This document shows positions 6,199 through 23,049 of a DNA stretch of 32,000 nucleotides, in pieces. The stretch is from Ktedonobacterales bacterium. GTDB taxonomy: Bacteria > Chloroflexota > Ktedonobacteria > Ktedonobacterales > JADMIN01. The notes under the pieces were generated by a model. It was not told the DNA's origin. It searched no databases and saw only the letters and a program-made list of their open reading frames with translations. The stretch covers positions 600,001 to 632,000 of the forward strand of contig CP126532.1 of assembly GCA_030167145.1 (NCBI GenBank), written 5' to 3'. A program made the position numbers and the translations under genes. Every line of letters begins with the position of its first letter. Position 1 is the first letter of the stretch.

Positions 6199-6843
6199 TT
6201 ACCGCAGAGTAAGCTCTCGAAGCATATATGGCTTGTGCTCGCCATCCGCGATGACCAGCCGTGGGGCAACGTGCGAAATCGCCGTCTTGCCGTCGCGTGC
6301 CTCCACCTGCGTTTCCAGCACCAGCGCGGGACAGGGCAGCGCAGAGAACGACATACCGGTGGCATGTGTGAATCCGTGGCTGAAGATGGCCAGCGGCGCC
6401 GCAAGTTGCGCGTCGGGTACAGGTATGTACGTCCAGTAATCCAGCACGATGAGGTCAAGCGTGGCGCTGATCTGCTTGCCCATGATGAGCAGGTTGCGGG
6501 CTTTGGGCGCAAGGGCATTGGGCGTATACCGCTCGAACTCCACCAAACAGCGCGGAGTCTGATCCGTACGAGAGAACCAGACGGCATCGGGCCGCTTAGC
6601 GCCTTCGCCCATCAGCAGCTTATCCAGACGATCAAAGATAGGCGAGTCGCAGACGGGCGAGTATCCCAGCCGGTGGCCGACGAGCACCAGCGCCGATAGC
6701 ATGTAGGCGTGGAGTGCGCCATCGTCAATGCCACGGGCAAACAGCGCGGGATACATCACCGGAAGAAATGCTGGATCGTGCAGTTGTTCGAGCAGCCACC
6801 GCGCCAGCGTCATGCCCGGCTGCTGATGCGCTGGGAGTGTCAT
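6199..6843 (-). CDS. Hypothetical protein, last gene of the HerA cluster; tentative PD-(D/E)xK-like nuclease motif
   Basis: ATG at 6843 follows the herA stop (6854) by 8 nt, with GAGGT at 7-nt spacing. The segment RPDAVWF-x11-LVEFERY (6529-6591) has the spacing of a PD...(D/E)xK core, but the Lys position is not canonical. Confidence 0.35.
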   Translation of the reverse strand: MTLPAHQQPGMTLARWLLEQLHDPAFLPVMYPALFARGIDDGALHAYMLSALVLVGHRLGYSPVCDSPIFDRLDKLLMGEGAKRPDAVWFSRTDQTPRCLVEFERYTPNALAPKARNLLIMGKQISATLDLIVLDYWTYIPVPDAQLAAPLAIFSHGFTHATGMSFSALPCPALVLETQVEARDGKTAISHVAPRLVIADGEHKPYMLRELTLR

Positions 6844-6853
6844 ACCGCAGACC

Positions 6854-8575
6854 TCACTCCTTCCAACTGCGCACAACATCCGGCGATTCGCCGCCGTGGA
6901 TCAGCACCTTCTGGCCCACCTTGACGAGCAATGGCGCCAGAATCGCGCGTCCGCTGACCAGCGCTTCGCCGGTGGAGAGCGAGGGCAGTTCCTTGATGTC
7001 CACTTCGGAGAAGTAGTCCGATGTGCTGCGAATGAACGCCTGATCGTCAGGGTTTTTAATGCGCATGGCGATGATCGTGTTTGCCTGGCTGGTCACGTCG
7101 CTATCCAGCTTGCTGGGCCGCTGACTCACGATAGCCGCGCCAACGCCGAACTTGCGACCCTCGGCGAAGATCTTCTTGATGATCGGTAGCGAGATGCTGG
7201 CTTCGCGCGCCGGGGCAAAGGTATGCCCTTCTTCGATGATCAGGAAGACAGGCCGGATGGGATCGCTGGTATCTTGCGCCGCACGCAAAATCTCGCCGCA
7301 GAGCAGCGCCACCACCACCTGCATCGAGGTACGCGACAGACCTTGCAGATCAATGATGCTGATGCGCCCGACGCTATCGGCGGGCGCGGTCTTGCGGGCG
7401 CGCCCGATCATCTGCCGCACGTCGAAGGGGTGCAGGCCACGCTCATAGAAAGCGTTGGCGTCGGTGAGGAGGTTGCGCAGCCGCAGGGCGACGATGGAGG
7501 CGCTGCGCGCGCTGATGGTCTTGCGCTCATTGTCGGGGAGTTCGTCCCAGGTGGTGAGCGCATCCAGATTCCGCCCACAGAGATCCAGGAGATCACGCGG
7601 CTCGCGCGGGGAAGGGAACTTCTTCTCCCAATAGCGCAGCGCGACCTGGAGGAAGCGCTGCTGCGGCTCGGTGCTTTCGGGGAAGACGCTGGCGAGTTCG
7701 TCGGCGCTCATCTCGTCTAGCCGCAGCGCCAGGGGGTGATGCTGGTCGTTATAGCGCAGCGAGAACTCACGCGTGCGCGGCGCATAGACGTGTATGCCAC
7801 CGCCGCGATCTTGTAGCTCGCGCAGCTTTGCGCCGAGCGCGCGCAACCCGTCCGCTTCCTGCTCTGGCAGCGCGGCATAAGTGGAATCGGGGGCGAAGTT
7901 GAGCATGCCGCCCCGGAAGGCGCGCCCATATTCGCCGTGGGGGTCCAGCACGACGATGCTGGCGTTGGATTCGGTGAGCATCCGCTCGATGATGCGCCCG
8001 ATGGTGTAGCTCTTGCCCGCGCCGGTCATGGCGAGGACGGCCAGGTGCTCGGTGACGATGCGGTTCACGTCTATGTAGACCGGCACGATATTGTCGCCGC
8101 GCTCATAGCCGACGAGGTTGCCCAACTGGATGTTGGTTTCCGGCGAGTATTCGTAGAACTCGCGCAGGAAGGCGAAGTCCACGCCGTAGACCTTCGCGCC
8201 TGGCTCCAGCGGGCGGCGTGGGATGCGCACCTCGCCGGTGTCGGGGTCGCGGTAGCCGACCAGTTCCATGCCTGCGTAATTGGTCTCGCCGGTGGAACGG
8301 CTGGTGAGCAGCGATACCTCAGCTACACCTTCGCCCATTTGCTGCGTAAACAGCATATTTTGTCGGCTCACGCCAGTGATGCGACCGAGCACCCATGTCT
8401 CGTGCGTGTCGCGCCGCTCGCGATGGCGCACGCGCACAAACTCGCCCCGGCGCGCGCTGAAGCTATCGCGTAGCGCCACATTGACGCGCAGCCCACCAGT
8501 ATCGCCAACCAACGTTCCCAGCCAGCGCTCTTCTTGCATCGTCTTACGTCCCATCTCTCTGTTCGGGTCTGCCAC
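6854..8575 (-). CDS. herA: HerA/FtsK-superfamily (DUF87-type) hexameric ATPase
   Basis: It has an N-terminal HAS-barrel-like region. Walker A is LAVLAMTGAGKSYT followed by VVLDPHGEY. Walker B is PVFLIIEEGHTFAP, followed by GVGAAIVSQRPSKLD and IIAMRIKNPDDQ, which is the classic HerA motif order. The start is uncertain: GTG 8575, ATG 8554 or ATG 8539. Confidence 0.88.
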   Translation of the reverse strand: MADPNREMGRKTMQEERWLGTLVGDTGGLRVNVALRDSFSARRGEFVRVRHRERRDTHETWVLGRITGVSRQNMLFTQQMGEGVAEVSLLTSRSTGETNYAGMELVGYRDPDTGEVRIPRRPLEPGAKVYGVDFAFLREFYEYSPETNIQLGNLVGYERGDNIVPVYIDVNRIVTEHLAVLAMTGAGKSYTIGRIIERMLTESNASIVVLDPHGEYGRAFRGGMLNFAPDSTYAALPEQEADGLRALGAKLRELQDRGGGIHVYAPRTREFSLRYNDQHHPLALRLDEMSADELASVFPESTEPQQRFLQVALRYWEKKFPSPREPRDLLDLCGRNLDALTTWDELPDNERKTISARSASIVALRLRNLLTDANAFYERGLHPFDVRQMIGRARKTAPADSVGRISIIDLQGLSRTSMQVVVALLCGEILRAAQDTSDPIRPVFLIIEEGHTFAPAREASISLPIIKKIFAEGRKFGVGAAIVSQRPSKLDSDVTSQANTIIAMRIKNPDDQAFIRSTSDYFSEVDIKELPSLSTGEALVSGRAILAPLLVKVGQKVLIHGGESPDVVRSWKE

Positions 8576-8580
8576 AGCGG

Positions 8581-9705
8581 TCAGGTTGCGGGCGCATCGA
8601 GTGGTTCTGACGCGCTTGCCGGTTGCATCTGCTCATGCACGAGATCGCGGAAGAGCGCCAGGATGGATTGCGGGAACGCCGCCAGCCGCCGCGCATACCA
8701 GAGCGGCAGCGGTTCGGCGCGGTCGCCCGTGGCCAGGGTGGCGCGCGCGATGTCATCGGCGAGGCGGTCCAGCATGTCACTTGTCCAGTGCTCACGGTGG
8801 CCCGCCACCTGGATCTGCCAGATGGGCGTGCGTTCGCCCGCGCGCATGAAGAAGCCGAGAATGCCGCTATGATGCAGCGCGTTTGGCTCCCAGTTCGTGG
8901 CCAGATTGATATCCTCGAAGCTATAGGCCACCGTGCGTGACCCTGGCGTCACCAGCATCTCCACCAGCCGCGACATCCCCGCCTGGCGCAGACGCCGCCA
9001 CTCGCGCTGAATGAAGAGCGCGAGGTTTGCTGGTATGGCATCGGGGCTAGTCTTCGGATTATTGTTGAGCGCGGTGAAAAGCGGCGTGGCGTTCTGATTC
9101 TGGACACTGGCGACGGTCACGCCGTCGGCGCGCAGGGGATAGAGCTGTGTGAAGTGGGCACGCCAGAAGCCGTTGATGGTGTGCAGCATCTCCAGCCACT
9201 CTTCTTCCACATCTTCGATCTGCGCGCGATTGCGGTCGTCGCCGCGCGAAACAAAGATCGGCACATCCAGCAGCGTGACCCGTGGCGGAGCGTCCGCCTC
9301 TAGCACCGTGGTGAGCAGCTCGAACGCATGTTGCGCGCGTTTCCAGCGCATGCGCTGCGTGGTCTCGTAATAGTCCAGGTCGCCGATATGCACCTGGACC
9401 TGCTCGCTCGCTCCGAGGATGTCATGCTGCGCGAGGCGCAGGTGGTGCGCGTGAGCAGTCGTGCCATACAGCAGGCCACCGAATGCGGGCAGGGTCTTTG
9501 CGGCCACTGCGACGCCAGCGATATCGAGTGTCCGCGCATCCTCTTCGTGCGAAGTGAACTGGCGGACGAGGCCGCGCGCCCGCAATTCCTGGCGTAAGCG
9601 TTCCGATTGGCGCAGTTTGCCAGTCAGCGTCTTCGCGGAACCCACCACACTGAGTTCTAGCTCAGCGGCGATCTCCGTCGCGAGGGTCGTGCGCTCTTCA
9701 TCCAT
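8581..9705 (-). CDS. HerA-adjacent hypothetical protein (positional equivalent of NurA; homology not established)
   Basis: ATG at 9705 is preceded by AGAGGAAAG, and the stop lies 5 nt before the herA GTG. The segment AFELLTTVLEADAPPRVTLLDVPIFVS loosely resembles the NurA E...hhhhDG.L block, but with V in place of G. The candidate first-motif position reads IAGVAVAA, with no DGS. Confidence 0.3.
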   Translation of the reverse strand: MDEERTTLATEIAAELELSVVGSAKTLTGKLRQSERLRQELRARGLVRQFTSHEEDARTLDIAGVAVAAKTLPAFGGLLYGTTAHAHHLRLAQHDILGASEQVQVHIGDLDYYETTQRMRWKRAQHAFELLTTVLEADAPPRVTLLDVPIFVSRGDDRNRAQIEDVEEEWLEMLHTINGFWRAHFTQLYPLRADGVTVASVQNQNATPLFTALNNNPKTSPDAIPANLALFIQREWRRLRQAGMSRLVEMLVTPGSRTVAYSFEDINLATNWEPNALHHSGILGFFMRAGERTPIWQIQVAGHREHWTSDMLDRLADDIARATLATGDRAEPLPLWYARRLAAFPQSILALFRDLVHEQMQPASASEPLDAPAT

Positions 9706-9726
9706 TGCTTTCCTCTTCGCTCTGCG

Positions 9727-10698
9727 CTACGATACGCCCACATGCGGCCCGCTCAGCCGTCGAATCCGCGCTGCAAGCTGCCAGCGCGCGATATACTCCT
9801 GCGCTCGTGCTACGATCACCTGTGACACGCCGTCTATCCCCGCCAGATCACCCTGCACTACGCCATGCTCCCGCAGCCACGCCCAGCCAGCGGCGAGCGC
9901 CGTGTCATCGGCGGCCAGGCCCAGCGCGCCCGTCACATGTGCGAACGCCGTGAGCATCTCTTCTGGCGCAGCGGCCATTTTCGCATCGGAACTGCTTACT
10001 GTGCGCAGCGCGGGCGCCGCCAGCGCCAGCGCCAGCAGCGCGATGCGCGCGTGCTGCTCGCCTTCAGCCGCCAGCGCAACAGCATCTTGCGCGGAGTTCG
10101 CCGCGAGTGGCGCGCGATCCACTGGCACGGCGGTCAGCCAGTCCGTCAGCGCGCGCAGTAGCGCCGCCACACTCGCCGGATCGGTCTGCGCCGAGGCCGT
10201 GCCGAGCATCAGTGTCGTCGCCAGCAGATGGCCTTGCCGGTTGCTTGTGCGCGGCAGCGCCACGAACAGTGGCTCACCAGAGGCCGAGGCCACTAGTGGT
10301 TGCCCATGCGCGCCTGCCAGTTGCTCGCGATACAGGATGCGCAGCGGCTCCTGCGATGCCACCGCAGCGGCAAGCGGGGACATGAGCCGCACCGCATCGC
10401 GGTGTGGGGCCGGAACAACAGCGATAGCAGTGCCTGGCAACGCGATTATTCCCACCGGCCACGGCGGCACGAGACACAGGTGCGCGCCCGCTGCGATGGC
10501 AGCCGCGAGATCAAGCGAAGCGGCGCGGTCGGCGCCCAGCAGGTAGAGCGTGCCCTGAGCCGCCCGCAGCAGTTCGTCTGGCGTGGCCAGTTCGGCGGCG
10601 AAGCCCGCGCCGGCTAGCCGCTCGGCTAGCCGCCGGTCAGCAGGTCCACATTCGATGATGCGTAGTCGCTGCGCATCGCTTGCATCGCTCATCGCCAC
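9727..10698 (-). CDS. Ala-rich hypothetical protein of the cluster (N-terminal alpha/beta, flavodoxin/GATase1-like pattern is only a guess)
   Basis: GTG at 10698 lies 9 nt after GGGAG and 16 nt after the upstream stop; an alternative ATG is at 10692. It is the only long ORF here running in the same direction as the operon. I recognise no motif in it. Confidence 0.5.
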   Translation of the reverse strand: MAMSDASDAQRLRIIECGPADRRLAERLAGAGFAAELATPDELLRAAQGTLYLLGADRAASLDLAAAIAAGAHLCLVPPWPVGIIALPGTAIAVVPAPHRDAVRLMSPLAAAVASQEPLRILYREQLAGAHGQPLVASASGEPLFVALPRTSNRQGHLLATTLMLGTASAQTDPASVAALLRALTDWLTAVPVDRAPLAANSAQDAVALAAEGEQHARIALLALALAAPALRTVSSSDAKMAAAPEEMLTAFAHVTGALGLAADDTALAAGWAWLREHGVVQGDLAGIDGVSQVIVARAQEYIARWQLAARIRRLSGPHVGVS

Positions 10699-10714
10699 TG
10701 CGCCCCACTCCCGC

Positions 10715-13700
10715 CTAGAACTCCACCACCGTCCGCAGCGTGATGAGCTTGCGCTCGCTCAATGCATCTAAGACCTGTCGGCCATATCGCGTGACGATCT
10801 GCTCATCGGTCATACCCTGCCGGTGATCGTAATATATCTGCATGTAGCGCTGGAATAATTCAGCATTACCGCACAGCGCCGCGCCTTTCCCCAGTATGTC
10901 CTCGGCGTAACGTTTCAGTTCATCGCGCCCCGCCGCATAGGTCCGCGCCGTCGTCACCTGCTGACTATTGGGCGCGTTTTGCGGATTATTCAGGCGAGCT
11001 GCAAGTTTCGCGACCGCTTGATCTTGCGGCTGATCGAGTTGCGCCAGAATTTCAGCCTGAGCATCGCGCCTGGCCGCTTCGATCACCTCATGCGATGAGG
11101 CGCAACGCTTGCGTATCTCGTCGCTCTCTTTTATCAGATCCTCAATGGTGGTATCGCGTGTGTCGTTGTTGGCAATGAAGCCCTTCACGACCTCCTCGAG
11201 ATCAGCCATATCGCGCGGCAACGTGGCACCGGTGAACTTGTTGCGCACCTCTTCCGCCGTGCCCGCAAAGTAGCGCTCCAGGTCTGCCCATGCCTCGCGC
11301 ACGCCATTGTACGCGGTTGCGGCCTCCGACCACCCACTATATGCCGTGTTGTACCGCACCCACCAGCCATCGGGGTTCGTATCCTCGAGTTGGCGGCGAT
11401 ACCAGGCCAGTTTGAGCAGCACACCAGAGAGGTTGTTCGCGCCTTTGAGCACTTTCAGCGGCGACTCGTTCGCCTGCTGGCTGAGGCCAACGGGCAGCGT
11501 GTTGCCGGGGAGCGCGCCGTCGAGGTCGGCTTCCATCGCCGCCAGCAGGCCAAGCATCGGTTGTGTGGGGAAACGCTCCGCACTGCCCTGGCTCGCGCCG
11601 TAGCGCTCCACGACCTCCGCGCGGCGCGTAGCGATGCGCTCGCGCAGGTCGTGTTCCGCCTCGCCAAGATACGCTTCGAGGTCGCGCAGGAAGCTGACGC
11701 GATATTCGATACTGAACTCAATATAGCTCTGGTCGCCCGCGATGCGGTTGATGTTGTCTTGTAGGGTCTGCGGGTCAATCGCGGGCGGCTGCACGTTCTG
11801 GCCAGGCTTGCCCAGCACCTGATCCAGCGCGGCGGCAATCTCGCCAATGGCACGGGCGACCTGCTCGAACGCATCCTGGTTGACTGGTGGGAACTGCGAC
11901 AACTCAGCAAGCGGCAACTGACGCAGACTATCTTTGCGCGGAGTTAACTCGTGGTTCTTCAGCAGAATCAATTGGTCGTGATTCACGCGCAACTGCCCCG
12001 CCAGCGCCTGCACGGGCGCGCTGAGTTCGCCCACCTGCTTCGCGTAGCCGCTCTTGACGGTGTCGAATGAGCCAAGCCGCTGGAAGGCGTCATCAAACTT
12101 CGCGTCGAAGGCGCTGGCCGTGCGCGCCACATACTCGCTGACCTGGTTCGTCTCGACGACGCCTAGCTCCACCATCAGCGCCATCACCTGCTCCAGCACG
12201 CCAGCGCTGCCTGCGGGGAAGGTCTCCGCGCCGCCGGGGCGCGCATAGAATAGCTCGCTATCCAAATCGAGCGGCTTCCGCGCCTTCACCCGCAGCAGAT
12301 CGAGGATGCGCGGCATCACCGGCGGAATCAGCGCGCGCCGCCGGTCGCCTTCGCCCGCAATCAGCGCCATCGTCCTGTCGCTCTGCACCTGTTCGTAGCC
12401 TTCGAGCGCCTTCCGCACCGAGCCAGCCTCCACGCCCAACGCGGCCATTCCCCCCACGACGACCAGCTTGCGATACGCCTGCGCAAATTCGCGATACGTC
12501 GGCGTGCTGGCAGACCGTGCGGGAAAGAACGGGCGCAGTACGTAGCCCTGGATTTCCGCCGCTCTCAGCCATGATTCGAACCTATCCAGCAAGATTTGCT
12601 TGAACTCGCCTTGCAGGTCACGCCCCTTCTGGCTCACCTCGTTTGACTTGAAGCTGCCCGGCTGATCGCGCAGCGCATAGCGGATATAGAACTCCCATTC
12701 GCGGGTCTGCGGCTCGACGAGATGCGAGATCACGGAAATGGCGAGATGTTCGCTGTGGGTGTCCTTCAGATGATTTTGCCAGATCTCGCGATCCTGGGCA
12801 CGCGTGAAGAGTAGCAACACCGGCACTCGCGCACGGATCGCCCGTAGGTCGTCGGTGACGGCCTGGGGTGTCTCCCGTGCCTTCAGCAGCACCAGTTGAT
12901 TGCGCGAGGTGACGTTGAGACGTTCATGCGATTCCAGTTTGAGTGTCAGGTATGGCGCCTTCACGTCGGCAAGTTGTGGATTCACGACCACCGTGGGATT
13001 CTCAAAGAGGGTGTTGGCAACGCCACGCAACAGCCGTTCGTCATTCTTGCCGGGGTCGCGGTCAATCGTGGTGATAACCTGCTCCCAAAGGTCTTCTTTC
13101 AGCCAGTTATTGGCAGCGGCTTTGCCCCACAGGTCGTTGAAGCGTCGCAGCAGCGCCATCGTCGGCGCGATCAGCCGTGCGGTCTGGGGTACCCGATGGC
13201 GTTCGAGCAGCAGCTTGTGCATCGTGCGCACCGTGGCGGCGGAGAGATTCGCGCCGAAGCCTGGGTAGGCGAAACTGACCTGCCCCTCGAAATCCGCCGG
13301 GTCGGCATAGATCCACAGCCGCGCCGCCGCGCCTGCTGGTTCGCCATCGCGCGTCCAGGCGAAGGTACGCAGGCTGGCGAGCACCGCGGCAGGATCGAAA
13401 TTGGGGCTGCCCTCGCCAGTAAGCTGCGGTTTCCGCTCGCTGTCATAGAGACCAGTGGCCATCAACCCTGTGGTAAGCTGGTCTGCGCTAACGTCCACTA
13501 ACACTGCCTCGCCGGCAAAGCGCGTTTGGAAGGGATCCTGATAGTTCAGCAGCGCGTTCCACAACTCCGGCGCGATGCCAAGATCGGTGAGCGTCGCCGG
13601 AATCTGGTTGTAGATCACCTCGCGCATCGCGTCTTTGAGCGTAAGTGGCTGGATATCGCGGTCCTCAAACGTGCTCGGTTGGAAGACTTTGCCCGTAAGC

Positions 13701-14773: not shown

Positions 14774-14827
14774 GGTGGGTGCTTCCTCCTGAAACTTCAG
14801 ATACGACCTTATCAGTGCCAGATGGAT

Positions 14828-14933
14828 GGGCAGGCATTCCTGTCCGCCATCCCCTAAGTGGGGCAGACATTCCTGTCTGCCTGCGGACAAAAAGTGTCCG
14901 CGCTATCAGCGTCCAGCGGACACCCCTACGTGG
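14828..14933 (-). promoter_or_regulatory. Repeat- and palindrome-rich intra-operon spacer upstream of the NTPase gene
   Basis: On the plus strand there are four elements. GGGCAGGCATTCCTGTCCGCC (14828-14848) and GGGCAGACATTCCTGTCTGCC (14861-14881) are direct repeats, and the second is a perfect 8-bp-arm palindrome (GGCAGACA-TTCC-TGTCTGCC). A hairpin GCGGACA-AAAAG-TGTCCGC lies at 14883-14901. CCCCTAAGTGGGG (14851-14863) is echoed by CCCCTACGTGG (14923-14933). Confidence 0.45.
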
Positions 14934-16140
14934 CGAAACGAAACTCGACGCGCTCCATAGTGAGATCGCCGAAGAGACAATCGGACGGCCCGGCCTGCGC
15001 ATGGAAGGTCAGTCCAATACCAAGCTTGCCCACATCCGGCCGCAGATAGTAGGCGACCTGCCGGTTGAAGTAATCCACGCGGTCCCCTGGCGGGATATCC
15101 AGTTCGTCGCAGACATAGTCGCGGATCGTCACGATATGCACCATCCCTTCAGGGTCGCTCAACTTCTCATACGTCGCGCGCAGCGAATTTAGGAAACGCA
15201 TCTCTGCTTCTCCCCCAAACAGGTCCGCCACCAGCGACGGATCAAACATCTCTTCGCAGCGTTCCCGGTCCAGCGTCCAGCCCTGCCGGTGCGGCAGATA
15301 CATCAGCGCGCCGATGTCGCGATACAACGTCAGCGCCTGCTTCATGTGTAATTTTAGGTCATTGCCCGATGGCTCTTTCTTCGCATTCAAGGCGTCTCTT
15401 CCGCCCTCAAAGCATACATTCTCTGGTACGCAAACATCCGCACGCTCGATGCGCTCGCGCAAGAACGGCCCGAGAATTACGTATGGCTCGCACTGGAGCA
15501 ACAGCGTAAAGCTATAAGCAGGCGTTCCGCCTTTGCTATAGCCGAAGAGGTCAGTTTCCTCGCCTTCCTTACCGCGCAGCGCGGTAGTCTTCCCCTTGGG
15601 AAAGAACGCCTCTTCTGAGGAACCGCCCTCGAAGGTCAGTAAGCAGTTCCACCGCGCCAGGTGCAGCAGCACGCAGCGCACGCGCACGTCGTTGCGCGCC
15701 AGGATGACCGCGAAGACGCGCTTCCAGTTGTTGCTAGAGCGATCAGTGGAATACGCATGCGCCAGCGCCAGCCCGTCGCCGGTGATACAATATGCGCCCG
15801 ATGAATCGCCCACCTCCTCGAAAAGGCCAACTCCCTCGATGGTTATTTCCTGGTACTCACGATTTATCCGAAGGCTCAGGATAGACGTCAACCAACTCTT
15901 TCCCATTGGTTCATTGCGGTGTCCGTCGCTCTCGCCAAAAATCTCTTCGACGATCTCTTTCTTCGTATACCTGTGCCCCGATTCCGCACGTTGCAAGTAG
16001 TACGGCCAGCGCGCGGCGCTCTGCTGCCACGAGAACACCTTGTTCAGCCGCACGATCAGCGGGTCCGGGCGCAGCACGTCATGTGCGGGCGTCACCGCGT
16101 CGTCGAGTTGCATCTGCGTATATTTGTCGGTGGTCGTCAT
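14926..16140 (-). CDS. Hypothetical protein (404 aa), compositionally atypical member of the cluster
   Basis: ATG at 16140 overlaps the upstream stop in an ATGA junction. No motif was recognised, apart from possible wHTH-like segments such as VFAVILARNDVRVRCVLLHLAR. G+C is lower than in the neighbours: my hand count of 15301-15420 gives 62/120, against 44/60 for 16501-16560. Confidence 0.6.
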   Translation of the reverse strand: MTTTDKYTQMQLDDAVTPAHDVLRPDPLIVRLNKVFSWQQSAARWPYYLQRAESGHRYTKKEIVEEIFGESDGHRNEPMGKSWLTSILSLRINREYQEITIEGVGLFEEVGDSSGAYCITGDGLALAHAYSTDRSSNNWKRVFAVILARNDVRVRCVLLHLARWNCLLTFEGGSSEEAFFPKGKTTALRGKEGEETDLFGYSKGGTPAYSFTLLLQCEPYVILGPFLRERIERADVCVPENVCFEGGRDALNAKKEPSGNDLKLHMKQALTLYRDIGALMYLPHRQGWTLDRERCEEMFDPSLVADLFGGEAEMRFLNSLRATYEKLSDPEGMVHIVTIRDYVCDELDIPPGDRVDYFNRQVAYYLRPDVGKLGIGLTFHAQAGPSDCLFGDLTMERVEFRFAT

Positions 16141-17780
16141 CGCGCGCTCCTCCCGGCGGGGATAATGCTCAGCAGATCATATGCGGCGTAATACCAGCGC
16201 GAGTCGCGCGTACCCAGTGACGCGGCGCCGCCATCGCCCTCGCACAGCAACCCGACACGCAGCCCCTGCTCCACCAGACGCTCCCCCAGACGGCGCGTCT
16301 CGTCCGCGTTCCCGGCGTAGCCTTCGTCCCACACCTCGTAGCCCAGCGCCAGCAGCCGATCATCCAGCGCCAGCGCCAGCGGACGCCCATCCAGCAGCCA
16401 GCCGTTCGCGCGCCGCGCCAGCAGTTCGGCCTGCGACCCAACATCGGTGGCGATCAGATAGAGCAGCGCCAGATGCGGATGCGCCGCCAGCAGCGCATCG
16501 GGCTGCCCCTGCTCTGCAGTCAGCGACGCCGCCAGCAGCGTCGCCACTCCCGGACTTGCCGCGCGAGCCTTCACCCGCAGCGCCTCATCCAGAAAGCGGT
16601 ACGCGCGGCCCAGCAGCGGCAGATCGCTCGCCAGCGGCAGCGGCGGCCCGATCACCAGCGACGACGCCGTCAGCGGCATCTCATCGGCAATCGCCGTGGT
16701 GGCGAACTCGCCAGCCGCCTCGGTGGCGGCGGCGGCCAGCCGCTCGGCCAGATCTTCGATCTCGATGGCGCCCCGCGCGTTGCCATCCACACCCATCGCC
16801 ACCCGCTCATGCGCCAGCGCCAGCGCCGCTTCGGCGCTCTCCGCGCGCGGCGACCGCCGCGCCGCCACCGCCATGCGCTCGAACGGCGCCAGGTCGCGCA
16901 CCGTCAGCGCCACCGCTGGAACCAGCGCCGCCACCGTCACGCCGCCACGCCGTTCCAGCCGGATGTCCATGCCGCCGCGCCGCAACTGCTCCACCGCCAG
17001 CGACAGCGCCGACGGCCCGCCCCGCGTCACCACCACACCCTGGCCCCGCTGCCGCGCCGCCATCAGCAGCAGCAGCGCATGCAGTGTCAGCGGCTCATCC
17101 AGCCACTCCGCATCCAGCCGCACTGGAAGCTGCGCGGCTTCCGCCAGATCCGTGGCGATTTCCGCGGCACGGGTCAGGTCGGTCCACCGTGCGCGGTGAC
17201 GCTGGCCAAACCAGTCGCGCAGCGCATCAGTGCTGAGCGGCTCCAGTGGCAGAAACTTCGTTTGCAGCACACGATTGAGCAAGTCGCGATCACCAAAGCC
17301 TCCATTCGGCGCGAGTATCTCACTCAGTGATACGGCACGCGCGCGAAAACCTGGAAAGATTTCGTAAATGCTGGCCTCGATCTGGTTCGTCACCGGCAAT
17401 CGCTTCACCCGCGCCGTAAGGAGCGTTTCCAGCAAACTGTGACACAAATAGCGCTGATACGCGGGCAGCGCCAGCAGCGCGCGCCACAGCCCTTCTGTCG
17501 CGACATCTCCCTCGGCCAGCAGCGCGCGTCCCGCCGCCGTTGGCCGCAGCCATCCCGTGGGCGATTCATCCAACAAGCCCGCCAGCCTTGCCGTGCCCAG
17601 ATAGTGTGGGCCGACGTCGCTGTGGTCCACATAGTTCATCGCCTGGTTCATCTCGGCGAGGGTGCTGTAGGGATTGCGCAACGCCTGCGCCAGGCAGCGC
17701 AGCGCCTTGCCAGGATCGCTACCCTTGCTCACCGTTCGCATATCCTGCTCCACCTCACCAGCGTACATCCGGTCGCCCAT
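16137..17780 (-). CDS. Hypothetical protein (547 aa), paralog of the C-terminal module of the upstream giant protein
   Basis: Several colinear blocks are shared with residues of about 1140-1612 of the 1612-aa protein. They are YLGTARLAGLLDE/YLRLGTVGGLLAT, LALPAYQRYL/LSLPAYRTHL, LLLLMAARQRGQG/LLLLLAAQSQGQG, HLALLYLIATDVGSQAELLARRANGW/HLALLTLIAYDSGALAEQVRRADDGW, ALGYEVWDEGY/ALGYETWDEAY and WYYAAYDLL/VYYAAYDTL. Confidence 0.7.
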   Translation of the reverse strand: MGDRMYAGEVEQDMRTVSKGSDPGKALRCLAQALRNPYSTLAEMNQAMNYVDHSDVGPHYLGTARLAGLLDESPTGWLRPTAAGRALLAEGDVATEGLWRALLALPAYQRYLCHSLLETLLTARVKRLPVTNQIEASIYEIFPGFRARAVSLSEILAPNGGFGDRDLLNRVLQTKFLPLEPLSTDALRDWFGQRHRARWTDLTRAAEIATDLAEAAQLPVRLDAEWLDEPLTLHALLLLMAARQRGQGVVVTRGGPSALSLAVEQLRRGGMDIRLERRGGVTVAALVPAVALTVRDLAPFERMAVAARRSPRAESAEAALALAHERVAMGVDGNARGAIEIEDLAERLAAAATEAAGEFATTAIADEMPLTASSLVIGPPLPLASDLPLLGRAYRFLDEALRVKARAASPGVATLLAASLTAEQGQPDALLAAHPHLALLYLIATDVGSQAELLARRANGWLLDGRPLALALDDRLLALGYEVWDEGYAGNADETRRLGERLVEQGLRVGLLCEGDGGAASLGTRDSRWYYAAYDLLSIIPAGRSAR

Positions 17781-17820
17781 CGCGGCGCGACGTTTCTGCT
17801 CGCCGTTCGATAGTACACCA

Positions 17821-17897
17821 TTTTCGCTTTTCGCGCGAGCGTCGTTTTTGCGTCATCACCGCTATGTCGTCTTCGCTCAATTGATAGAATTGATAGA
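17821..17897. repeat. Short tandem repeats in the A/T-richer spacer between the first and second genes of the cluster
   Basis: ATTGATAGA occurs twice in tandem at 17880-17897 (TCTATCAAT x2 on the coding strand, 21 nt after the TGA at 17919-17921). TTTTCGC occurs twice in tandem at 17821-17834. Confidence 0.6.
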
Positions 17898-17918
17898 CCA
17901 GCCCGCCAATCACTGCCA

Positions 17919-20900
17919 TCAACCGCTCGCGCCGCTCGGAGGCAGATCATCGAACACCGCACGCAGCCGTAGCAATGTATCGTATGCCGCATAATACACC
18001 TGGTTAGCGAGCGTGCCAGCCGCTTCCAGCGTCTCATCCACCGCGCGCGCCAGGCCCAGCCGCAGCGCCAGCAGGACCAATTCATCACCAAGTGTGGCCA
18101 CCAGCGCCGGATCGTCGCGGTACGCCTCGTCCCACGTCTCATAGCCCAGCGCGCGCAGCGCTGCATCTAGCGCGCTGATCAGCGGCAGCCCTCCCAGCCG
18201 CCAGCCATCGTCCGCACGGCGCACCTGCTCGGCCAGTGCGCCGGAGTCATATGCGATCAGCGTCAGCAGCGCCAGATGCGCGTTCGCGGCCAGTGTACGC
18301 GGCGCATCCCACGGCTGCGCCAGTAATTCCGCGCTCAGGCACACCGCCAGCGGCGCGACTGCCTCACCGCGCGCTAGCCGGTCAGCATGGGCGAGAAAGG
18401 CGAACGGCACGGCGCTGGCGCTCTGCTCAACCCAGCCAACATCAGCGATCAGCGCCGGAAATGCGCACGGCAGCATCTGCCCATCGGCGAAGCGCGCCGC
18501 GTCGCTGGTCTGTGGTGGCGGTGGCACGAGCAGTGCCGTCAGCGCCGTCGCGCTCGTACCCAGCAGTTCGGCGTAGAGGTCCGAGGCCGTAATCGCGCGC
18601 TGCGGCCACGCGAACTGCTGCGCCTGCAACCACGCCACGCCCAGTGCGGTGGCAAAATCGCCATCCAGCGCCCCCAGGCTCTCCGTCATCGCCGAACAAT
18701 CGTGTACGGCGATGTCTACTCGCTCATCCAGCGCGACACACCCAACGCTGTCACTGGCGATGGCGACACCGAGCAGACGCAACTGCGTGATGGTGCGCTC
18801 GATGTCGGGCAAGCCTTGCGCCGTCGCTTCAGCACACGCGAAACCCTGGCCTTGGCTCTGCGCCGCCAGCAGCAGCAACAGCGCCGCCAGCGCCGGTCCG
18901 CTCAAATCCGCCGTCGCAATCAGCGCCGAAGAACCATCCAGCGCTACTCGGCGTTGCACCCGCTGACCTAGACCAAACCGCGCGTCCCACGCCCTGGCCA
19001 GCGCGGGATCCAGCAGCGCGGCAGCATCGCCAGTGGCGCTGCCCTGCTCAGCCCGCAGATGTGTGCGATAGGCGGGCAGGCTCAGCGCCAGCGTCCGCGC
19101 CGCGTCCTGTGGATCGCGCGCGGCAGCGGCGAGCCAGGCGCGCCCGCGCGGCGTCGGGCGCATGCGCGCAGCGGGCGCATCGCAAGTGAGCGGCGCGGTA
19201 GCGAGCAGTCCGCCAACTGTACCCAGCCGCAGATACTCGTTGCCTTGTGGTCGCCCAGGCACATACCCCAGCGCTTGTGTCGCCTCGGCCACCTCAGCCC
19301 AGGGGCGCGCCAGCGTATGCAAAATCAGGCCGCGCAGCTTTTCAGGCTGCCGAGTGCCCCGCAATACCAGATGCCCGGCTGATACTCCCGCTCCCACCAC
19401 CTCAGCCGCCCGCGACACCGGCGCATGCGCCAGCCGGTAGCACAGCCCTCCAGGTGCACCCTCATCGGGAATCATCTCGACGAAGAGCATATCCCCAGGC
19501 TGCGCGCCAACCCTGGTGAACCACGCCCCCAACCCTGAAATCTGCGACGCCCCGCGCTTCAGTGCCATTGGCGTCTCCTTGCCATCAACGGAGACCCCCA
19601 CTGCCGCGAAGTGTCCCAGACGAGGAAACAGCTCGCGCGTCGGTTTGTTCGAGAACCCTATGCCGGTGGTCAACATCGGCTCGGTGAGCCGCATTTGCAC
19701 CACACGATGCCCATGTTCATTGGTGAACGCCCCGACTACACGTGCTGCCCGCCCATGTGGCTCAACACCAAACTTTTCGGTATAAGCGACCGCTGAATCG
19801 AAGTTGCTGTAGTCGCGGTCCACAAGGCCAAAGTAGCCGTTACCAAACGGCTTGATTCGCGAGTCGGTAGCCAGCGCGGCAGACAAACTGTTCTCTTTCC
19901 AGCGATAGCGTTCGCTTGCGCGTGCGATCACCTCATCGCGATGCAGCGGGCGTTCTGCCGCGGCCAATACATGCTCCACCACACTGGCGACATTGCAGAG
20001 CGCGGGATTGTAGTCATCCTCCGCCAGCGCGAACATCCCATGCCCAACCAGCACGAATGTCTCTGGAAAGCGGCCCATAAATGCGTGGACGGTATGGTCG
20101 TTGCGCTCGCTATCTTCGGGAAAGAGTGCGCGATAGCGTGCGGCAATCTCGCTGAAGTGCGCTGGGTGGCCCAGGTCACGCAACGCAGCGATCAGGCGCG
20201 GCAACAGCTTACTACCACTGCTGGAAACATAAGTCGCTCCCTGGCGCTGAATTCGTGTGGAGAGGGTGAGCACGGCAGTGACGAACGCGCGACCCGCCCG
20301 CGCCACCTCTTCGCCCCCGCTCTCCAGTGACTCGGCGATCAAGCGTTCTGGCTCGATGCCGCCAGGGCGCGCTTCCAGCAGCCGCAGCGCCGTAGACTCC
20401 ACCTGTTCGACCAACTCTGGCGTCTGCGACGCGGCGACATAGACATCGGCGTCCGTAGTGGCCAGCGCAGGCGACCACGAGGCCAGCAGCGCCACCGTCG
20501 TCACGGGATATACTCCGCCAAACGGCAGCCATACTGCGATGCGCTCAGCCATGCGCGTGGCGGTTGCTATACCGCCCTCAGCACGCACAGCCCACAGCGC
20601 CAGCGCGCACAGCCCACGGACATACGACTCGATGGTGGGGGCGGCTAATCGTTCGTTGGCCCGCACTTCAAGCTGCCGTGCGCGCTCACGGGTCACGTAG
20701 AACTCTGCGCCCAACTCGTTCAATGTCTTCGGGTGGCCATCGAAGACGCCGCAGCGCGCGAACAGCACGCGAAACTCGCGTGGCAACGGATCCGCTGGCA
20801 ACGCATCCGCTGGCTCCGCTATCCTCTTGCCGCGTGGCATCCCGCCCACCAGCCCATACAGCAGCGCCTCCACACTTACCGCATCCAGCACCGACAGCCG

Positions 20901-22757
20901 TGCCTCATCCTCCGGCCCGCCCGCCAGCGCGCGCTCCGCAAGTTCTTGCGCGAACCGCCAGCACAGTTCACCAACCAACCAGTCCTCTTCTTCGTGACTC
21001 AGCGCAACGTTCGAGTTCATGATGTGCGAGCCGCCCGTGTCGCAAAGTTCGCCGAGCGTAAGATGTGCCAACGGCGCGAGCGCGGAAACCGAATCGCCTG
21101 CGTCCACCACTTCGGCAATCCGCAGCTCCCGCCACGCAACGCCATAGCGATCCAGCAGCCCCAGCAACGGCGACCTCAAGAGCATGAGCAGGGGATGCGT
21201 CTCCTTCGCCATCCGCCCCTGCGTCGCGAGATTGGCAGTAGGCCGCTGCTCGACATCTCCCACGGTATCCCCTGCATAGTCCCCCTGTTCTGCTGGCGGT
21301 GTGAGCAAATCGTCAGGTAGTCCGTCTATCCACGGTAGCAGAAACGTCAGCAGCCGTTCACATAGCTCGCGAAAGCTGCCAGGGCCGAAGTTACGCAACC
21401 CGCAAAGGTCATCTGGGTTGAGCCGCGCCACATCGCCCACGGTCCGCATGCCCGCGCCATACAGCACGTTGTACGTGCGCATCGCTTGTGACGATGACGA
21501 GGGCAGCAGCGCCGCCTCCAATGGCACAGTATCCAGCGCACAGTTCAGCTCCCTCAGCGCCGCGACGAAACGCGGCGAGAGCAGCGGACGGTGATAAACC
21601 CAGGGCGCGGCCAGCACATCATCCAGCGCGTAGAAAAGCGCGCTGCCAATCGCCTGCGGGTGGCCATCGGCGCCCAACCCAACGTGGGCCACGCCGGACA
21701 GGACAGGTGACTGGTACCCCACGAGCAGCGGCGCAAGCGTTTCCGCCAGCGCGGGCCGTAGCATCGCCCGCGCCATCGTGACAACCTCGGCCCAGAAAGC
21801 GCCCGGTGTAGGGCGCGCATCGCTGGTGTTGTGCTCAGCCGTCGCGGCCAGCGCCAGCAATTCCAGCGGCGTCGCCGCCTCCAGGCTTCCCATCGCGCGC
21901 GAGTCGAGCAGGCGTATTGTGCGCCGCCAATCAGACGCAAGCTCATCCAGCAGACCGATACAGGCGTCTGGCAGTAGTGAAATCGAGACCCCATCGCCAC
22001 CTGGCGCAAGCGTAGTAGCCTGGCCTATTAGCGGCATCGCCGCTCCCTTTGCTGTGTGGTCCGGTTGCCTCATCATGCTGAACGCACGTCGCCTCCGTCG
22101 TTGGTCATCCTCTGCCATCGGCCTCCCTCGCGCGACTGGGCTAGCTGGCGATGTCTTCTGCAGCACGGCTTGCGCATCACGCCGCGCCAGCGCCTCTGCT
22201 GTGAACTGTTCTCTTTCGACTTCGCCCTCAAACCGCAACAATCTCACGCGCATCTCCTGCGAAAAGTAGGTTTCGATCAATGTTCGCCGCAGCGTTTGTC
22301 GCGCATCCTCCTGCCCCAGCAACGCGAACAGCGCATCATCCAGCCTTGCGCCGGTTATCAGATGATGCAGTTGACCGAGGGCCGTGACGGTCTGCGTGGT
22401 GGCAAGTTCCCGCCGCATACCTGGCGCGGGCAGCAGGTGCCAGAAACCATCATCGGCGAGGTGGAAAAAGGGGATCACCAGATTAGACGACCGCGCGCTC
22501 AATCGCGTCACGGCAGTCCAGTACGCATTGAATCGCGCCTGCAACTCGGAGTTCACCGCGATGAAGTTGCGCACGAGCAGCCCCTCAGCCACCAGCGAAG
22601 CGACACACAGTAGCAGCAGCGGCTTATGCGGCGCGTGTTGGCGCTGGCGCGTCCAGTGCTCTGGCGTGGGATACGGCAGCACATGTGAGAACGCCCACGT
22701 GTAGCGCTCGATCATACCGCCTCTTGCTGTATACACCATATCGCTGCGAGCCATCAT
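17919..22757 (-). CDS. Giant (about 1600 aa) multi-DNA-binding-domain protein with no recognisable catalytic domain
   Basis: Domain-like segments, by residue and approximate coordinates:
- Residues ~45-110 (about 22248-22700): HKPLLLLCVASL...NLVIPFFHLADDGFWHLL, resembling the ScoMcrA-type SBD / HNH_2-associated wHTH.
- Residues ~420-475 (21333-21500): MRTYNVLYGAGMRTVGDVARLNPDDLCGLRNFGPGSFRELCERL, resembling the RNAP alpha-CTD HhH.
- Residues ~655-708 (20634-20795): FRVLFARCGVFDGHPKTLNELGAEFYVTRERARQLEVRANERL, resembling sigma-70 region 4.
- Residues ~850-915 and ~924-985 (19803-20210): two HARE-HTH-like modules.
- Residues ~1005-1112 (19422-19745): GLGAWFTRVGAQPGDMLFVEM, possibly a B3/AbrB-like barrel (tentative).
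- The C-terminal ~470 aa are paralogous to the next gene.
The start is either ATG 22757 or ATG 22715. Confidence 0.75.
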   Translation of the reverse strand: MMARSDMVYTARGGMIERYTWAFSHVLPYPTPEHWTRQRQHAPHKPLLLLCVASLVAEGLLVRNFIAVNSELQARFNAYWTAVTRLSARSSNLVIPFFHLADDGFWHLLPAPGMRRELATTQTVTALGQLHHLITGARLDDALFALLGQEDARQTLRRTLIETYFSQEMRVRLLRFEGEVEREQFTAEALARRDAQAVLQKTSPASPVARGRPMAEDDQRRRRRAFSMMRQPDHTAKGAAMPLIGQATTLAPGGDGVSISLLPDACIGLLDELASDWRRTIRLLDSRAMGSLEAATPLELLALAATAEHNTSDARPTPGAFWAEVVTMARAMLRPALAETLAPLLVGYQSPVLSGVAHVGLGADGHPQAIGSALFYALDDVLAAPWVYHRPLLSPRFVAALRELNCALDTVPLEAALLPSSSSQAMRTYNVLYGAGMRTVGDVARLNPDDLCGLRNFGPGSFRELCERLLTFLLPWIDGLPDDLLTPPAEQGDYAGDTVGDVEQRPTANLATQGRMAKETHPLLMLLRSPLLGLLDRYGVAWRELRIAEVVDAGDSVSALAPLAHLTLGELCDTGGSHIMNSNVALSHEEEDWLVGELCWRFAQELAERALAGGPEDEARLSVLDAVSVEALLYGLVGGMPRGKRIAEPADALPADPLPREFRVLFARCGVFDGHPKTLNELGAEFYVTRERARQLEVRANERLAAPTIESYVRGLCALALWAVRAEGGIATATRMAERIAVWLPFGGVYPVTTVALLASWSPALATTDADVYVAASQTPELVEQVESTALRLLEARPGGIEPERLIAESLESGGEEVARAGRAFVTAVLTLSTRIQRQGATYVSSSGSKLLPRLIAALRDLGHPAHFSEIAARYRALFPEDSERNDHTVHAFMGRFPETFVLVGHGMFALAEDDYNPALCNVASVVEHVLAAAERPLHRDEVIARASERYRWKENSLSAALATDSRIKPFGNGYFGLVDRDYSNFDSAVAYTEKFGVEPHGRAARVVGAFTNEHGHRVVQMRLTEPMLTTGIGFSNKPTRELFPRLGHFAAVGVSVDGKETPMALKRGASQISGLGAWFTRVGAQPGDMLFVEMIPDEGAPGGLCYRLAHAPVSRAAEVVGAGVSAGHLVLRGTRQPEKLRGLILHTLARPWAEVAEATQALGYVPGRPQGNEYLRLGTVGGLLATAPLTCDAPAARMRPTPRGRAWLAAAARDPQDAARTLALSLPAYRTHLRAEQGSATGDAAALLDPALARAWDARFGLGQRVQRRVALDGSSALIATADLSGPALAALLLLLAAQSQGQGFACAEATAQGLPDIERTITQLRLLGVAIASDSVGCVALDERVDIAVHDCSAMTESLGALDGDFATALGVAWLQAQQFAWPQRAITASDLYAELLGTSATALTALLVPPPPQTSDAARFADGQMLPCAFPALIADVGWVEQSASAVPFAFLAHADRLARGEAVAPLAVCLSAELLAQPWDAPRTLAANAHLALLTLIAYDSGALAEQVRRADDGWRLGGLPLISALDAALRALGYETWDEAYRDDPALVATLGDELVLLALRLGLARAVDETLEAAGTLANQVYYAAYDTLLRLRAVFDDLPPSGASG

Positions 22758-23049
22758 GAATTACGACGGCGCCCCGGCTCACCCTGATCAGAGAGCGTAT
22801 GGTGGAATCTAGTCTACCAAGACGGTCGCACCCCGTCAACTATGCACGTCCCCGCCAACCCACATAATACGGGCGTTGCCGTTACCCAATTCGCCACCTA
22901 GCGGGCGACTCGATATACAGAGTATCGTGTGCCAAGACGCGGGACGCCAGCAGCGCATAGGAAACACAGGGGTCGCGCATGGCAACGGCTGAGTAGCGCG
23001 CCATACAATGCTGTGAGACGAAGGAATGTGTCCGCAGGAGGCAACCAGC

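Follow-up and report, generated by a model that had tools for sequence, protein, structure and literature searches.

Organisation of the gene cluster

The analysed window is a stretch of 32,000 nucleotides (nt) from a Ktedonobacterales bacterium (assembly GCA_030167145.1, contig CP126532.1, positions 600,001 to 632,000), and the subject of the analysis is a cluster of eight genes within it that is centred on a HerA-type DNA translocase. The cluster consists of eight consecutive open reading frames (ORFs), named G1 to G8 here, which occupy the minus strand between positions 6199 and 22757 of the window. G1 (17919–22757) encodes a putative multi-domain DNA-reader protein of 1612 amino acids (aa) and is followed by G2 (16137–17780; 547 aa), G3 (14926–16140; 404 aa) and G4, which begins with a GTG codon (10715–14773; 1352 aa). 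The remaining genes are G5 (9727–10698; 323 aa), G6 (8581–9705; 374 aa), G7, which encodes HerA (6854–8575; 573 aa), and G8, starting with an ATG at position 6843 (6199–6843; 214 aa).

An earlier reading of the same DNA, referred to below as the original prediction, had described eight minus-strand genes with operon-like junctions, and these were reproduced at the same coordinates. The stop codon of G2 and the start codon of G3 overlap in an ATGA sequence (16137–16140), while the remaining tight junctions, between G4 and G8, were calculated from the coordinates as gaps of 16, 21, 5 and 10 nt, the stop codon of G6 lying 5 nt ahead of the start of HerA. These values follow from the use of the GTG at 14773 as the start of G4 and the ATG at 6843 as the start of G8. 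The former is preceded by AGGAGGA 8 nt upstream, the longest version of this ORF starting at 14890, and the latter has GGAGTGAGG upstream, an alternative start at 6879 giving a protein of 226 aa. The lower G + C content ascribed earlier to the 404-aa gene was also found, G3 having the lowest value of the eight genes (0.58).

HerA and its putative nuclease partners

The product of G7 matches the Pfam family PF01935 over its full length (6e-38), the PADLOC HerA model PDLC04105 (2.6e-57) and the PADLOC HerA models of two-gene systems (1e-30 to 3e-57). Its best NCBIfam match is the archaeal HerA (NF040819; 3e-55), with a score of 187.7 bits versus a cut-off of 970. Walker A (TGAGKS) and Walker B (FLIIEE) motifs are present, the match to the HAS-barrel is weak (0.0032), and weak matches to the TraB, VirB4, TrwB and Zot models were also obtained. 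These features place G7 in the HerA/FtsK superfamily as a predicted HerA-type hexameric DNA translocase. The identity of HerA to its orthologs in other loci is between 50% and 87%, whereas that of G4, G6 and G8 falls to about 21–30% in the distant clade described below, so that HerA is far better conserved than its partners. Such a contrast is the pattern expected if the partners were under diversifying pressure and the motor were not.

No sequence-level family was found for G6 in Pfam, PADLOC or NCBIfam, and the Pfam NurA model misses it. The AlphaFold2 (AF2) model of G6, built on 38 homologs, reached a pLDDT of 86.1 and a pTM of 0.84, and the highest Foldseek matches of this model were the NurA structures 2YGK (2e-10), 9X1N (1.5e-8; the HerA–NurA–DNA complex of T. 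kodakarensis) and 3TAI (1e-6), followed by EndoV and PIWI. Endonuclease V and PIWI domains form the RNase H-like neighbourhood of NurA. As judged from the model, G6 is a NurA-like protein with an RNase H-like fold, with an identity to NurA of only 10–12%, and the original placement of the 374-aa gene in the NurA position is thus matched by its predicted structure. The catalytic set of NurA, which we take to be an Asp in β1, a Glu in α1, an Asp after β4 and a His, has candidate counterparts in the G6 of the window, namely D61, E129, D147 and H303. Across all clades, D147 does not vary and position 129 holds either E or D.

For the 214-aa product of G8, a PD-(D/E)xK-like segment had been proposed. 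In the alignment of G8 from 12 loci (A3; numbering of the 226-aa version), H57, R96, D98, W101, E114, F115 and K126 are invariant and E116 is nearly so, and the 12 orthologs have in common the motif RPDxxW ... (V/I)EFE(R/H)Y ... KxxNL. With D98, E114 and K126 invariant, this is the pattern that had been proposed, at the level of the motif only, and G8 is tentatively regarded as a candidate PD-(D/E)xK-type nuclease.

G4, a large AAA+ ATPase

The family has G4 as its signature gene, 23 homologs of which were found among 5.8 billion proteins. The G4 protein carries a Walker A motif (GNWAIGKS) at residue 58 and a Walker B motif (LVIVDE) at residue 206, and the Walker residues are invariant. The AF2 model of residues 1–661 had a pLDDT of 83.5, and its best Foldseek match in the Protein Data Bank (PDB) was the N-terminal half of BrxC from the Acinetobacter BREX complex (9ZLL_D; 2.2e-5, 545 aligned columns), the next matches being Cdc6/ORC, TnsC and RdrA. 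The model indicates a BrxC/ORC-Cdc6-like AAA+ ATPase in the N-terminal half of G4; the other half, towards the C-terminus, is long and helical. An nSTAND3 match in G4 is weak (0.004) and lies below the cut-off.

G1, a putative multi-domain reader

G1 is confined to Ktedonobacterales-type loci. Homologs of 1484–1752 aa were found at the same position in loci L004, L021, L022, L024 and L025 (homologous loci are designated by L and a number) and in the JGI contig that carries P0036. Three domains bear out the original view that the 1612-aa protein is assembled from DNA-reader modules: a sulfur-binding domain (SBD), a module like the C-terminal domain of the RNA polymerase α subunit (α-CTD) and a σ70 region 4.

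The SBD (residues 37–164; 22266–22649, minus strand) matches SBDHga1 in PDB entry 8H0L with an E value of 9.5e-11. This domain is the fold that reads phosphorothioate DNA. It also matches NCBIfam NF045808 (5e-10), with a score of 38.9 bits versus a cut-off of 180, the match covering the SBD part of the profile only (positions 12–148 of 284). The sulfur cavity of SBDHga is formed by H25, K26, L75, P76 and H79 (PMC10602919). In the alignment with 8H0L, mapped by hand, these residues correspond to H44, K45, I95, P96 and H99 of G1, and because all five are kept or conservatively substituted, the sulfur cavity of the G1 domain looks intact at the sequence level. No HNH or other nuclease domain was found in G1 with Pfam and NCBIfam.

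The α-CTD-like helix-hairpin-helix module (residues 424–474; 21336–21488, minus strand) matches Pfam PF03118 above the cut-off (3.7e-06), and with the G1-family profile α-CTD structures were recovered at 2e-9. The helix-turn-helix of σ70 region 4 (residues 658–719; 20601–20786, minus strand) matches PDB entry 1TTY at 6e-11 with the single sequence and at 1e-13 with the family profile, as well as Pfam PF04545 (4.6e-06), and includes the recognition helix VTRERARQLE; the match to housekeeping σ factors is unusually good. G1 was not classed as a σ70-family sigma factor, as region 4 was matched and region 2 was not. The σ4 part also resembles the C-terminus of MzaA, the score of G1 being 26.5 bits versus the 800 required for MzaA and confined to the C-terminal helix-turn-helix.

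Conservation within the G1 family is highest, with many invariant columns, in a tandem pair of units of about 65 aa (residues ~846–990; 19788–20222, minus strand), whose repeat pattern was judged by eye. This stretch yielded no Pfam match at E ≤ 0.1 and no PDB match. The units may be winged-helix or HARE-HTH-like. A HARE-HTH assignment was considered and is a lead rather than an established result: it lacks Pfam or PDB support, and the homolog on the contig with P0036 has only a 'faint' precomputed match.

The C-terminal part of G1 is a G2-paralogous module (residues 1131–1595; 17973–19367, minus strand), recognised by BLASTP of G1 against G2. Residues 1131–1234 of G1 are 35% identical to residues 17–112 of G2, and residues 1452–1595 are 44% identical to residues 394–537 over 144 aa (E = 9e-19), collinear with the first segment; the paralogy of the two genes suggested originally is thereby confirmed. 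The G1 orthologs (L004, L021, L022, L024, L025 and that of a further contig) retain the α-CTD and σ4 modules as well as the central and the G2-like part.

G2, G3 and G5

In the clade to which the window belongs, G2 is always located directly upstream of G3–G4. Its homologs were found by tblastn in L001, L004 and L021–L023, and in L002 and L003 the proteins that occupy its place show a weak alignment to it. No Pfam, PADLOC or PDB match was obtained for G2, while one member of its family has a weak winged helix-turn-helix match. G3 has homologs with 33–70% identity in L001, L002, L004, L005 and L021–L023, and gave no family or PDB match. G5 was found between G4 and G6 in all loci and is conserved mainly by position; its alignment (A11) has only 3 invariant columns, which marks it as fast-evolving. 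No PDB or Pfam match was found for G5, and its C-terminus has a winged-helix-like pattern, as judged by eye. Given its position, G5 may be an adaptor.

Pfam scans of the individual members of the G2, G3 and G8 families gave nothing consistent, and profile searches of G2, G3, G5 and G8 against PDB sequences gave nothing meaningful. The possibility that G2 or G3 is a diverged form of the specificity-subunit-like protein or of protein X found in the other clade was examined with hhalign and rejected at probabilities below 1%.

The original prediction considered only HerA to be confidently assignable. This view no longer applies, as G1, G4 and G6 are now assigned and G8 tentatively so.

Distribution and two architectures of the family

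A scan of one genome per species revealed relatives of the cluster in Ktedonobacterales, Terriglobales, Lyngbya, Chamaesiphon, many Planctomycetota, a Bacillus and a metagenome-assembled genome of Bdellovibrionota. When 1.84 billion representatives were searched with the G6 profile, 88 matches were obtained, of which 26 lay below 1e-30; the matches comprise about 30 full-length clusters, all of them small. A tblastn search with HerA against 72,556 plasmids recovered no member of the family, the best identity being at most 32% versus at least 50% within the family.

About 20 independent loci have this gene order, which shows that the cluster is not a chance arrangement. The core G4-(G5)-G6-HerA-G8 is collinear in L001–L004, L006, L008, L010–L014, L016, L019 and L021–L025, representing at least four phyla, and its order holds in every locus long enough to judge.

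Two architectures were distinguished. The distant clade A, formed by the loci of cyanobacteria, Planctomycetota and Bacillus, has 11 co-directional genes in the order TRD-like protein, small protein, type I-like methyltransferase, specificity subunit, protein X, G4, G5, G6, HerA, G8 and a Ser/Thr kinase with TPR repeats. All three restriction-modification-type components are constant in clade A, the methyltransferase being present in 8/8 loci and the kinase, like the specificity subunit, in every locus (9/9 for the kinase). The two conserved genes ahead of the methyltransferase encode proteins of about 460 aa and about 125 aa in L006, L010, L013, L014 and L016; in L012, the protein at the ~460-aa position matches a type I specificity-domain model, and the ~460-aa protein has no similarity to that of L012.

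In clade B, which includes the window, G2 and G3 replace the specificity subunit and protein X, to which they have no detectable homology, and the kinase is lacking. G1 occurs only in the Ktedonobacterales-type subset of this clade. The methyltransferase, PglZ, Lon, SNF2, SIR2, TIR, reverse transcriptase and Cas genes that the original prediction had reported as missing were likewise not detected in the eight genes of the window with Pfam, PADLOC and NCBIfam. Clade B methyltransferases occur occasionally, in or beside L001, L002, L003 and L022, and it is the sub-clade of the window, not the family, that is characterised by the lack of a methyltransferase.

Variation within clade B loci was also observed. 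On the plus strand of L022 (2808–8103), a 744-aa gene of unassigned kind and an Eco57I-type methyltransferase are inserted between the homologs of G1 and G2, which shows that the architecture with G1 can also accommodate a methyltransferase; L022 contains frameshifts that are probably assembly errors. Extra small genes lie between G5 and G6 in L002 (11445–12047) and L023 (15663–16253), including one for a DUF5655 protein, and L001 has two extra genes at this place.

Intergenic features

As stated originally, both larger spacers carry repeats. In the spacer between G1 and G2 (17781–17918, minus strand), these are two tandem copies of TCTATCAAT, which overlap a palindrome. The spacer between G3 and G4 (14774–14925, minus strand) is the more structured of the two, containing repeats and a hairpin. 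Two 21-nt copies, each of them palindromic, GGCAGACAGGAATGTCTGCCC (14828–14848) and GGCGGACAGGAATGCCTGCCC (14861–14881), lie 33 nt apart on the minus strand upstream of the G4 ribosome-binding site and have an operator-like look. Immediately past the stop codon of G3, a GC-rich hairpin is followed by UUUUU (14889–14924, minus strand); its folding energy is −15.9 kcal/mol (z = −2.05), and 8 of 200 shuffled sequences fold equally well. The hairpin is a candidate terminator or attenuator, and together with the palindromes the spacer looks like a terminator or attenuator plus operator. Such an arrangement suggests that the recognition genes G1–G3 and the engine genes G4–G8 are regulated apart. The structured spacer is not present in L004, where the gap between G3 and G4 is about 20–70 nt.

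A promoter-like site (TTGACG, a spacer of 17 nt and TAGACT with an extended TG; 22811–22839, minus strand) lies 54 nt upstream of the start of G1. It is a match to the consensus, the count of such sites in the region being not above chance.

Genomic context

A comparison of the window with L004 showed that the cluster resides in unrelated chromosomal contexts with different flanks. Genes beside clade B loci encode, among others, an OLD/TOPRIM (OLD/Gabija-like) ATPase, a DEAD/MZB helicase, RecQ, an MvaI/BcnI (type II) restriction enzyme, CHAT proteins and a UvrD-PDDEXK protein, and integrases, transposases and a DUF499 (BrxC-family) gene were also seen there. The DUF499 (BrxC/PglY family) gene is located in L021 (1–1685, plus strand; 1138 aa) directly upstream of the G1 homolog and on the same strand, and it could belong to a neighbouring BREX-type system or be an accessory of the G1–G8 family. 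On the JGI contig that carries P0036, a complete locus of the G1–G8 type has two phage-type integrases and a transposase within 3 kb downstream.

In the window itself, a gene for an AP-endonuclease-2/xylose-isomerase TIM-barrel protein adjoins G8. A tRNA-Gln with the anticodon TTG is encoded at 73–146 (minus strand), some 6 kb beyond G8, and the Rfam scan detected this tRNA only. An ORF of 174 aa (219–743, plus strand) has a weak, partial match to DUF3427 (6.5e-06; 26.1 bits versus a cut-off of 27.7) and no PADLOC match, and it may be a gene remnant; DUF3427 is presumably found for the most part in restriction-associated helicases. On the other side of the cluster, at least three overlapping copies of a 12-nt tandem repeat (AACGAGCATGGG-like; 23043–23089, plus strand) are present at the 5' end of a HisKA_3 sensor-kinase ORF (23026–24339), where they would encode a short repeated peptide.

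Interpretation and alternative explanations

From the conserved gene order, the domain assignments and the genomic context, we infer that the cluster represents a rare, horizontally scattered multi-gene family directed against phages or other mobile elements, and that it is a HerA-anchored, DNA-degrading defence system; the probability that we attach to this reading is about 0.55. In the proposed mechanism, a DNA-recognition module, represented by G1-G2-G3 in the window, would pick out foreign DNA. The G4 ATPase would assemble on the chosen DNA and couple its recognition to the loading of the HerA ring, and HerA would then pump the DNA into the NurA-like G6 and the G8 nuclease for degradation. 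In clade A, the recognition module would consist of the methyltransferase, the specificity subunit and the Ser/Thr kinase, a set that implies self-marking, as in BREX and MADS. As the window has no methyltransferase and G1 appears to read features of DNA, G1 most likely reads a mark or a sequence feature directly. The choice of the target would then depend on a pre-existing modification or sequence feature and not on self-written methylation. Phosphorothioate is a candidate for the mark, a detail in which we have considerably less confidence than in the defence reading as a whole.

The co-conserved gene set in a defence-type neighbourhood that had been expected originally is seen in the family, whose genes are co-conserved and sporadic and have defence and mobility genes beside the homologous loci, and is not seen in the flanks of the window itself. 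The lack of any known defence gene in these flanks is one of several points that weigh against the proposed role, which for both architectures is drawn from context. The G + C content of the cluster is unremarkable, 0.635 versus 0.617 in the flanks, which amounts to no difference. G2, G3 and G5 have no assignable fold. For G4, the TM-scores of the comparison with BrxC are low (0.26–0.30) and the Pfam family DUF499 has no match, so that G4 is BrxC/ORC-like in fold and not a DUF499 member. D61 and H303 of G6 are kept only in the near clade, and since they are not conserved outside it, G6 may be active in the window and a scaffold in much of the rest of the family. The nuclease assignment of G8 relies on its motif, as no Pfam, PADLOC or PDB sequence match was obtained, and G8 is absent from L021 and L024. 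The HerA of these two loci is longer, at 587 aa, and downstream of it lie PQQ/β-propeller or CHAT-WD40 genes together with transposases. Lastly, the SBD is degenerate in L004 and absent from the G1 of L021, and for this reason phosphorothioate reading cannot be the general mode of the clade of the window.

HerA–NurA is known as an archaeal end-resection machine, and the cluster might instead be a housekeeping operon for bacterial HerA–NurA end resection in double-strand-break repair. The NurA fold of G6, encoded directly upstream of HerA, the best NCBIfam match of G7 to the archaeal HerA of double-strand-break repair and the AP-endonuclease-2/xylose-isomerase TIM-barrel gene beside G8 would all suit this function. 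A repair operon is nevertheless very improbable, given that the family is very rare and patchy, that its contexts differ between two Ktedonobacterales genomes, that no Mre11/Rad50 was found in the cluster with Pfam and that G7 scores 188 bits against the cut-off of 970 for the curated HerA equivalog. Moreover, the clade A operon includes a methyltransferase, a specificity subunit and a kinase, and transposases, integrases and other defence genes adjoin homologous loci. The integrases and transposases that flank some of these loci, and the tRNA-Gln 6 kb from the cluster, would agree with a DNA module of a mobile element, in which the HerA/FtsK protein would pump, segregate or transfer the DNA of the element under the regulation of the sigma-like and winged-helix proteins. 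ATPases of the HerA/FtsK type do drive conjugative and segregational transport, and the weak TraB, VirB4, TrwB and Zot matches of G7 point the same way. This explanation, too, seems improbable to us: genes for a relaxase, a replication initiator, an integrase, a capsid or secretion are absent from the window, the genes that accompany the five-gene core are of the restriction-modification type and not transfer genes, and the HerA search found no family member among the 72,556 plasmids.

A further alternative concerns the unity of the cluster, namely that G1–G3 form a separate module or system and that G4–G8 alone are the HerA machine. The hairpin with its U-run and the two operator-like palindromes do part G3 from G4, G2 and G3 are without counterparts in clade A, and G1 is restricted to one lineage. 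Yet G2–G3 stand directly ahead of G4 in every clade B locus examined (L001, L004 and L021–L025), down to a G4 identity of about 30%, as well as by position in L002 and L003; the gap between G3 and G4 in L004 is only about 20–70 nt; and a recognition-type module, whether methyltransferase/specificity subunit/X or G2/G3, is always located upstream of G4. Two adjacent independent units are therefore an unlikely arrangement.

Within the reading of the cluster as a HerA-anchored defence system, a more specific and rather speculative scenario is that the sub-clade of the window turned a self-marking HerA machine of the BREX/MADS type into a non-writing system, in which the giant sensor G1 took the place of the methyltransferase, the specificity subunit and the kinase; G1 would read phosphorothioate, act as a bait for phage factors, or both. 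If the SBD of G1 reads phosphorothioate DNA, the result would be a type IV-like, modification-dependent restriction carried out by HerA–NurA. Alternatively, the σ70 region 4 and the α-CTD of G1 could be baits, so that a phage anti-sigma factor or a factor targeting the α-CTD would trigger DNA degradation. Both surfaces of RNA polymerase, σ70 region 4 and the α-CTD, are commonly hijacked by phages. The conservation of the α-CTD and σ4 parts in G1 orthologs, next to the variable SBD, is compatible with a bait and equally with plain DNA binding.

If the interpretation is true, HerA–NurA was recruited whole into bacterial immunity and placed under the control of a BREX-type ATPase, which would link HerA effector platforms, the methylation-based immunity of BREX and MADS, and DNA end resection, usually treated separately. 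The two architectures would represent a natural module swap, in which the same five-gene engine is combined either with methyltransferase, specificity subunit and kinase or with a G1–G3 reader, and would offer a route to the self/non-self question. Phosphorothioate sensing would gain a new effector context through the fusion of an SBD, its cavity apparently intact, with σ70 region 4 and the α-CTD, and G1 would possibly be an example of RNA-polymerase-mimicking sensors.

Comparison with known systems

The original prediction held that the cluster matches no named system. This is correct in so far as PADLOC recognises only HerA in it, and has to be revised in that the core is shared with clade A, with the MADS-like layout and with the HerA/FtsK capture theme described below. 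Among the systems compared, MANTIS (Gao_RL) was rejected as a four-gene system of different composition, and membership in Dnd/Ssp/Pbe was rejected because only a weak C-terminal (HerA-like) match to DndH was found. In the eight genes, no match to PglX, PglZ, BrxA, BrxB, BrxL, PglW or DUF499 was obtained, and the likeness to BREX/Pgl is that of G4 to BrxC, at the level of the fold only. The N-terminus of G1 is a homolog of the SBD of the phosphorothioate-dependent type IV enzymes with SBD-HNH architecture (ScoMcrA, SprMcrA and Hga); whereas the partner domain in these enzymes is HNH, the SBD of G1 is fused to DNA-binding modules of RNA polymerase type and linked to a HerA machine.

In SIR2-HerA and DUF4297-HerA, the HerA hexamer is the platform for an adjacent effector, as is proposed for the window, and DUF4297, which we take to be a PD-(D/E)xK-type nuclease, is parallel to G8. 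No SIR2 or DUF4297 effector was found beside HerA by PADLOC or Pfam matches in G6 and G8, the scores of G7 against the NCBIfam cut-offs for anti-phage HerA were 112 versus 850 bits and 92 versus 800 bits, and the window has six genes in addition to those of a two-gene HerA system. The archaeal HerA–NurA end-resection machine (2YGK, 3TAI, 9X1N) likewise has HerA beside a protein of the NurA fold. Unlike in HerA–NurA end-resection operons, Mre11/Rad50 had no Pfam match in the cluster or its flanks; part of the catalytic set is variable across the G6 family, and the HerA–NurA pair of the window is embedded in a larger operon of defence type.

MADS (mad1–mad8) is also a multi-gene system with a large P-loop/AAA+ ATPase, and its HerA-like mad8 is matched by G7 at 4.6e-27. 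Clade A has further matches to MADS in its methyltransferase (mad2; 2e-18), specificity subunit (mad5; 2e-16) and kinase (mad6; 5e-57). The genes that MacSyFinder treats as mandatory for MADS are the MAD6 kinase, MAD7 (DptG-like) and MAD8; the window has no match to mad1–mad7, and MAD6 and MAD7 are thus absent.

Predicted HerA/FtsK capture systems combine HerA with Orc/Cdc6 AAA+ ATPases, nucleases of the restriction-endonuclease fold and winged-helix proteins (Rakesh, Aravind and Krishnan, NAR 2024; PMC10853773), and a BREX-related capture (BRC) system was described with PglZ, DUF6079, a STAND NTPase, DUF4007 and HerA, sometimes accompanied by GNAT and TGT (NAR 2026; PMC12839542). The winged-helix proteins are fast-evolving and bind DNA, and the Orc/Cdc6 protein of the 2024 class is defined by an inactive restriction-endonuclease domain inserted between its AAA+ core and its C-terminal winged helix. 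In the logic proposed for these systems, localisation falls to the AAA+ protein, and HerA supplies the nucleases with DNA (PMC10853773, PMC12839542), which is also the mechanism favoured above for the cluster. The G1–G8 family has the same combination of HerA/FtsK with an ORC/Cdc6- or BrxC-like AAA+ protein and a similarly sparse yet phylogenetically wide distribution. The counterpart of the nuclease in the window would be G8, by its motif, and there are hints of a winged-helix content. The term 'NurA' occurs zero times in the texts of PMC10853773 and PMC12839542, whereas the window has a NurA-like partner, and none of the BRC components PglZ, DUF6079 and DUF4007 was detected in the cluster with Pfam.

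A close similarity was found to MADS-like (madl1–madl11), an 11-gene candidate system that Maestri et al. 2023 noted in their supplement for 10/444 P. aeruginosa islands (bioRxiv 10.1101/2023.03.30.534895). Its methyltransferase is gene 3, the specificity subunit gene 4, the ATPase gene 6, the HerA-like helicase/translocase gene 9 and the kinase gene 11; gene 9 has a DptH-like C-terminus, and four proteins are without a prediction (10.1101/2023.03.30.534895). The same positions 3, 4, 6, 9 and 11 are occupied by the corresponding genes in the clade A loci L006, L010, L013, L014 and L016, and clade A likewise has four further genes to which no function could be assigned. A difference is seen in the first gene, which is reported as WYL-HTH for madl1 and is TRD-like in the clade A loci. 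As judged by its architecture, clade A probably corresponds to the MADS-like system. G4–G8 of the window correspond to genes 6–10 of this layout, and the C-terminus of the G7 HerA shares a weak match of DndH/DptH type. The window is without the methyltransferase, the specificity subunit, protein X, the kinase and the two upstream genes, and has the non-homologous G1-G2-G3 instead. The cluster, a system of a predicted kind, can best be regarded as an architecture that is sister to MADS-like and falls under the HerA/AAA+ capture theme.

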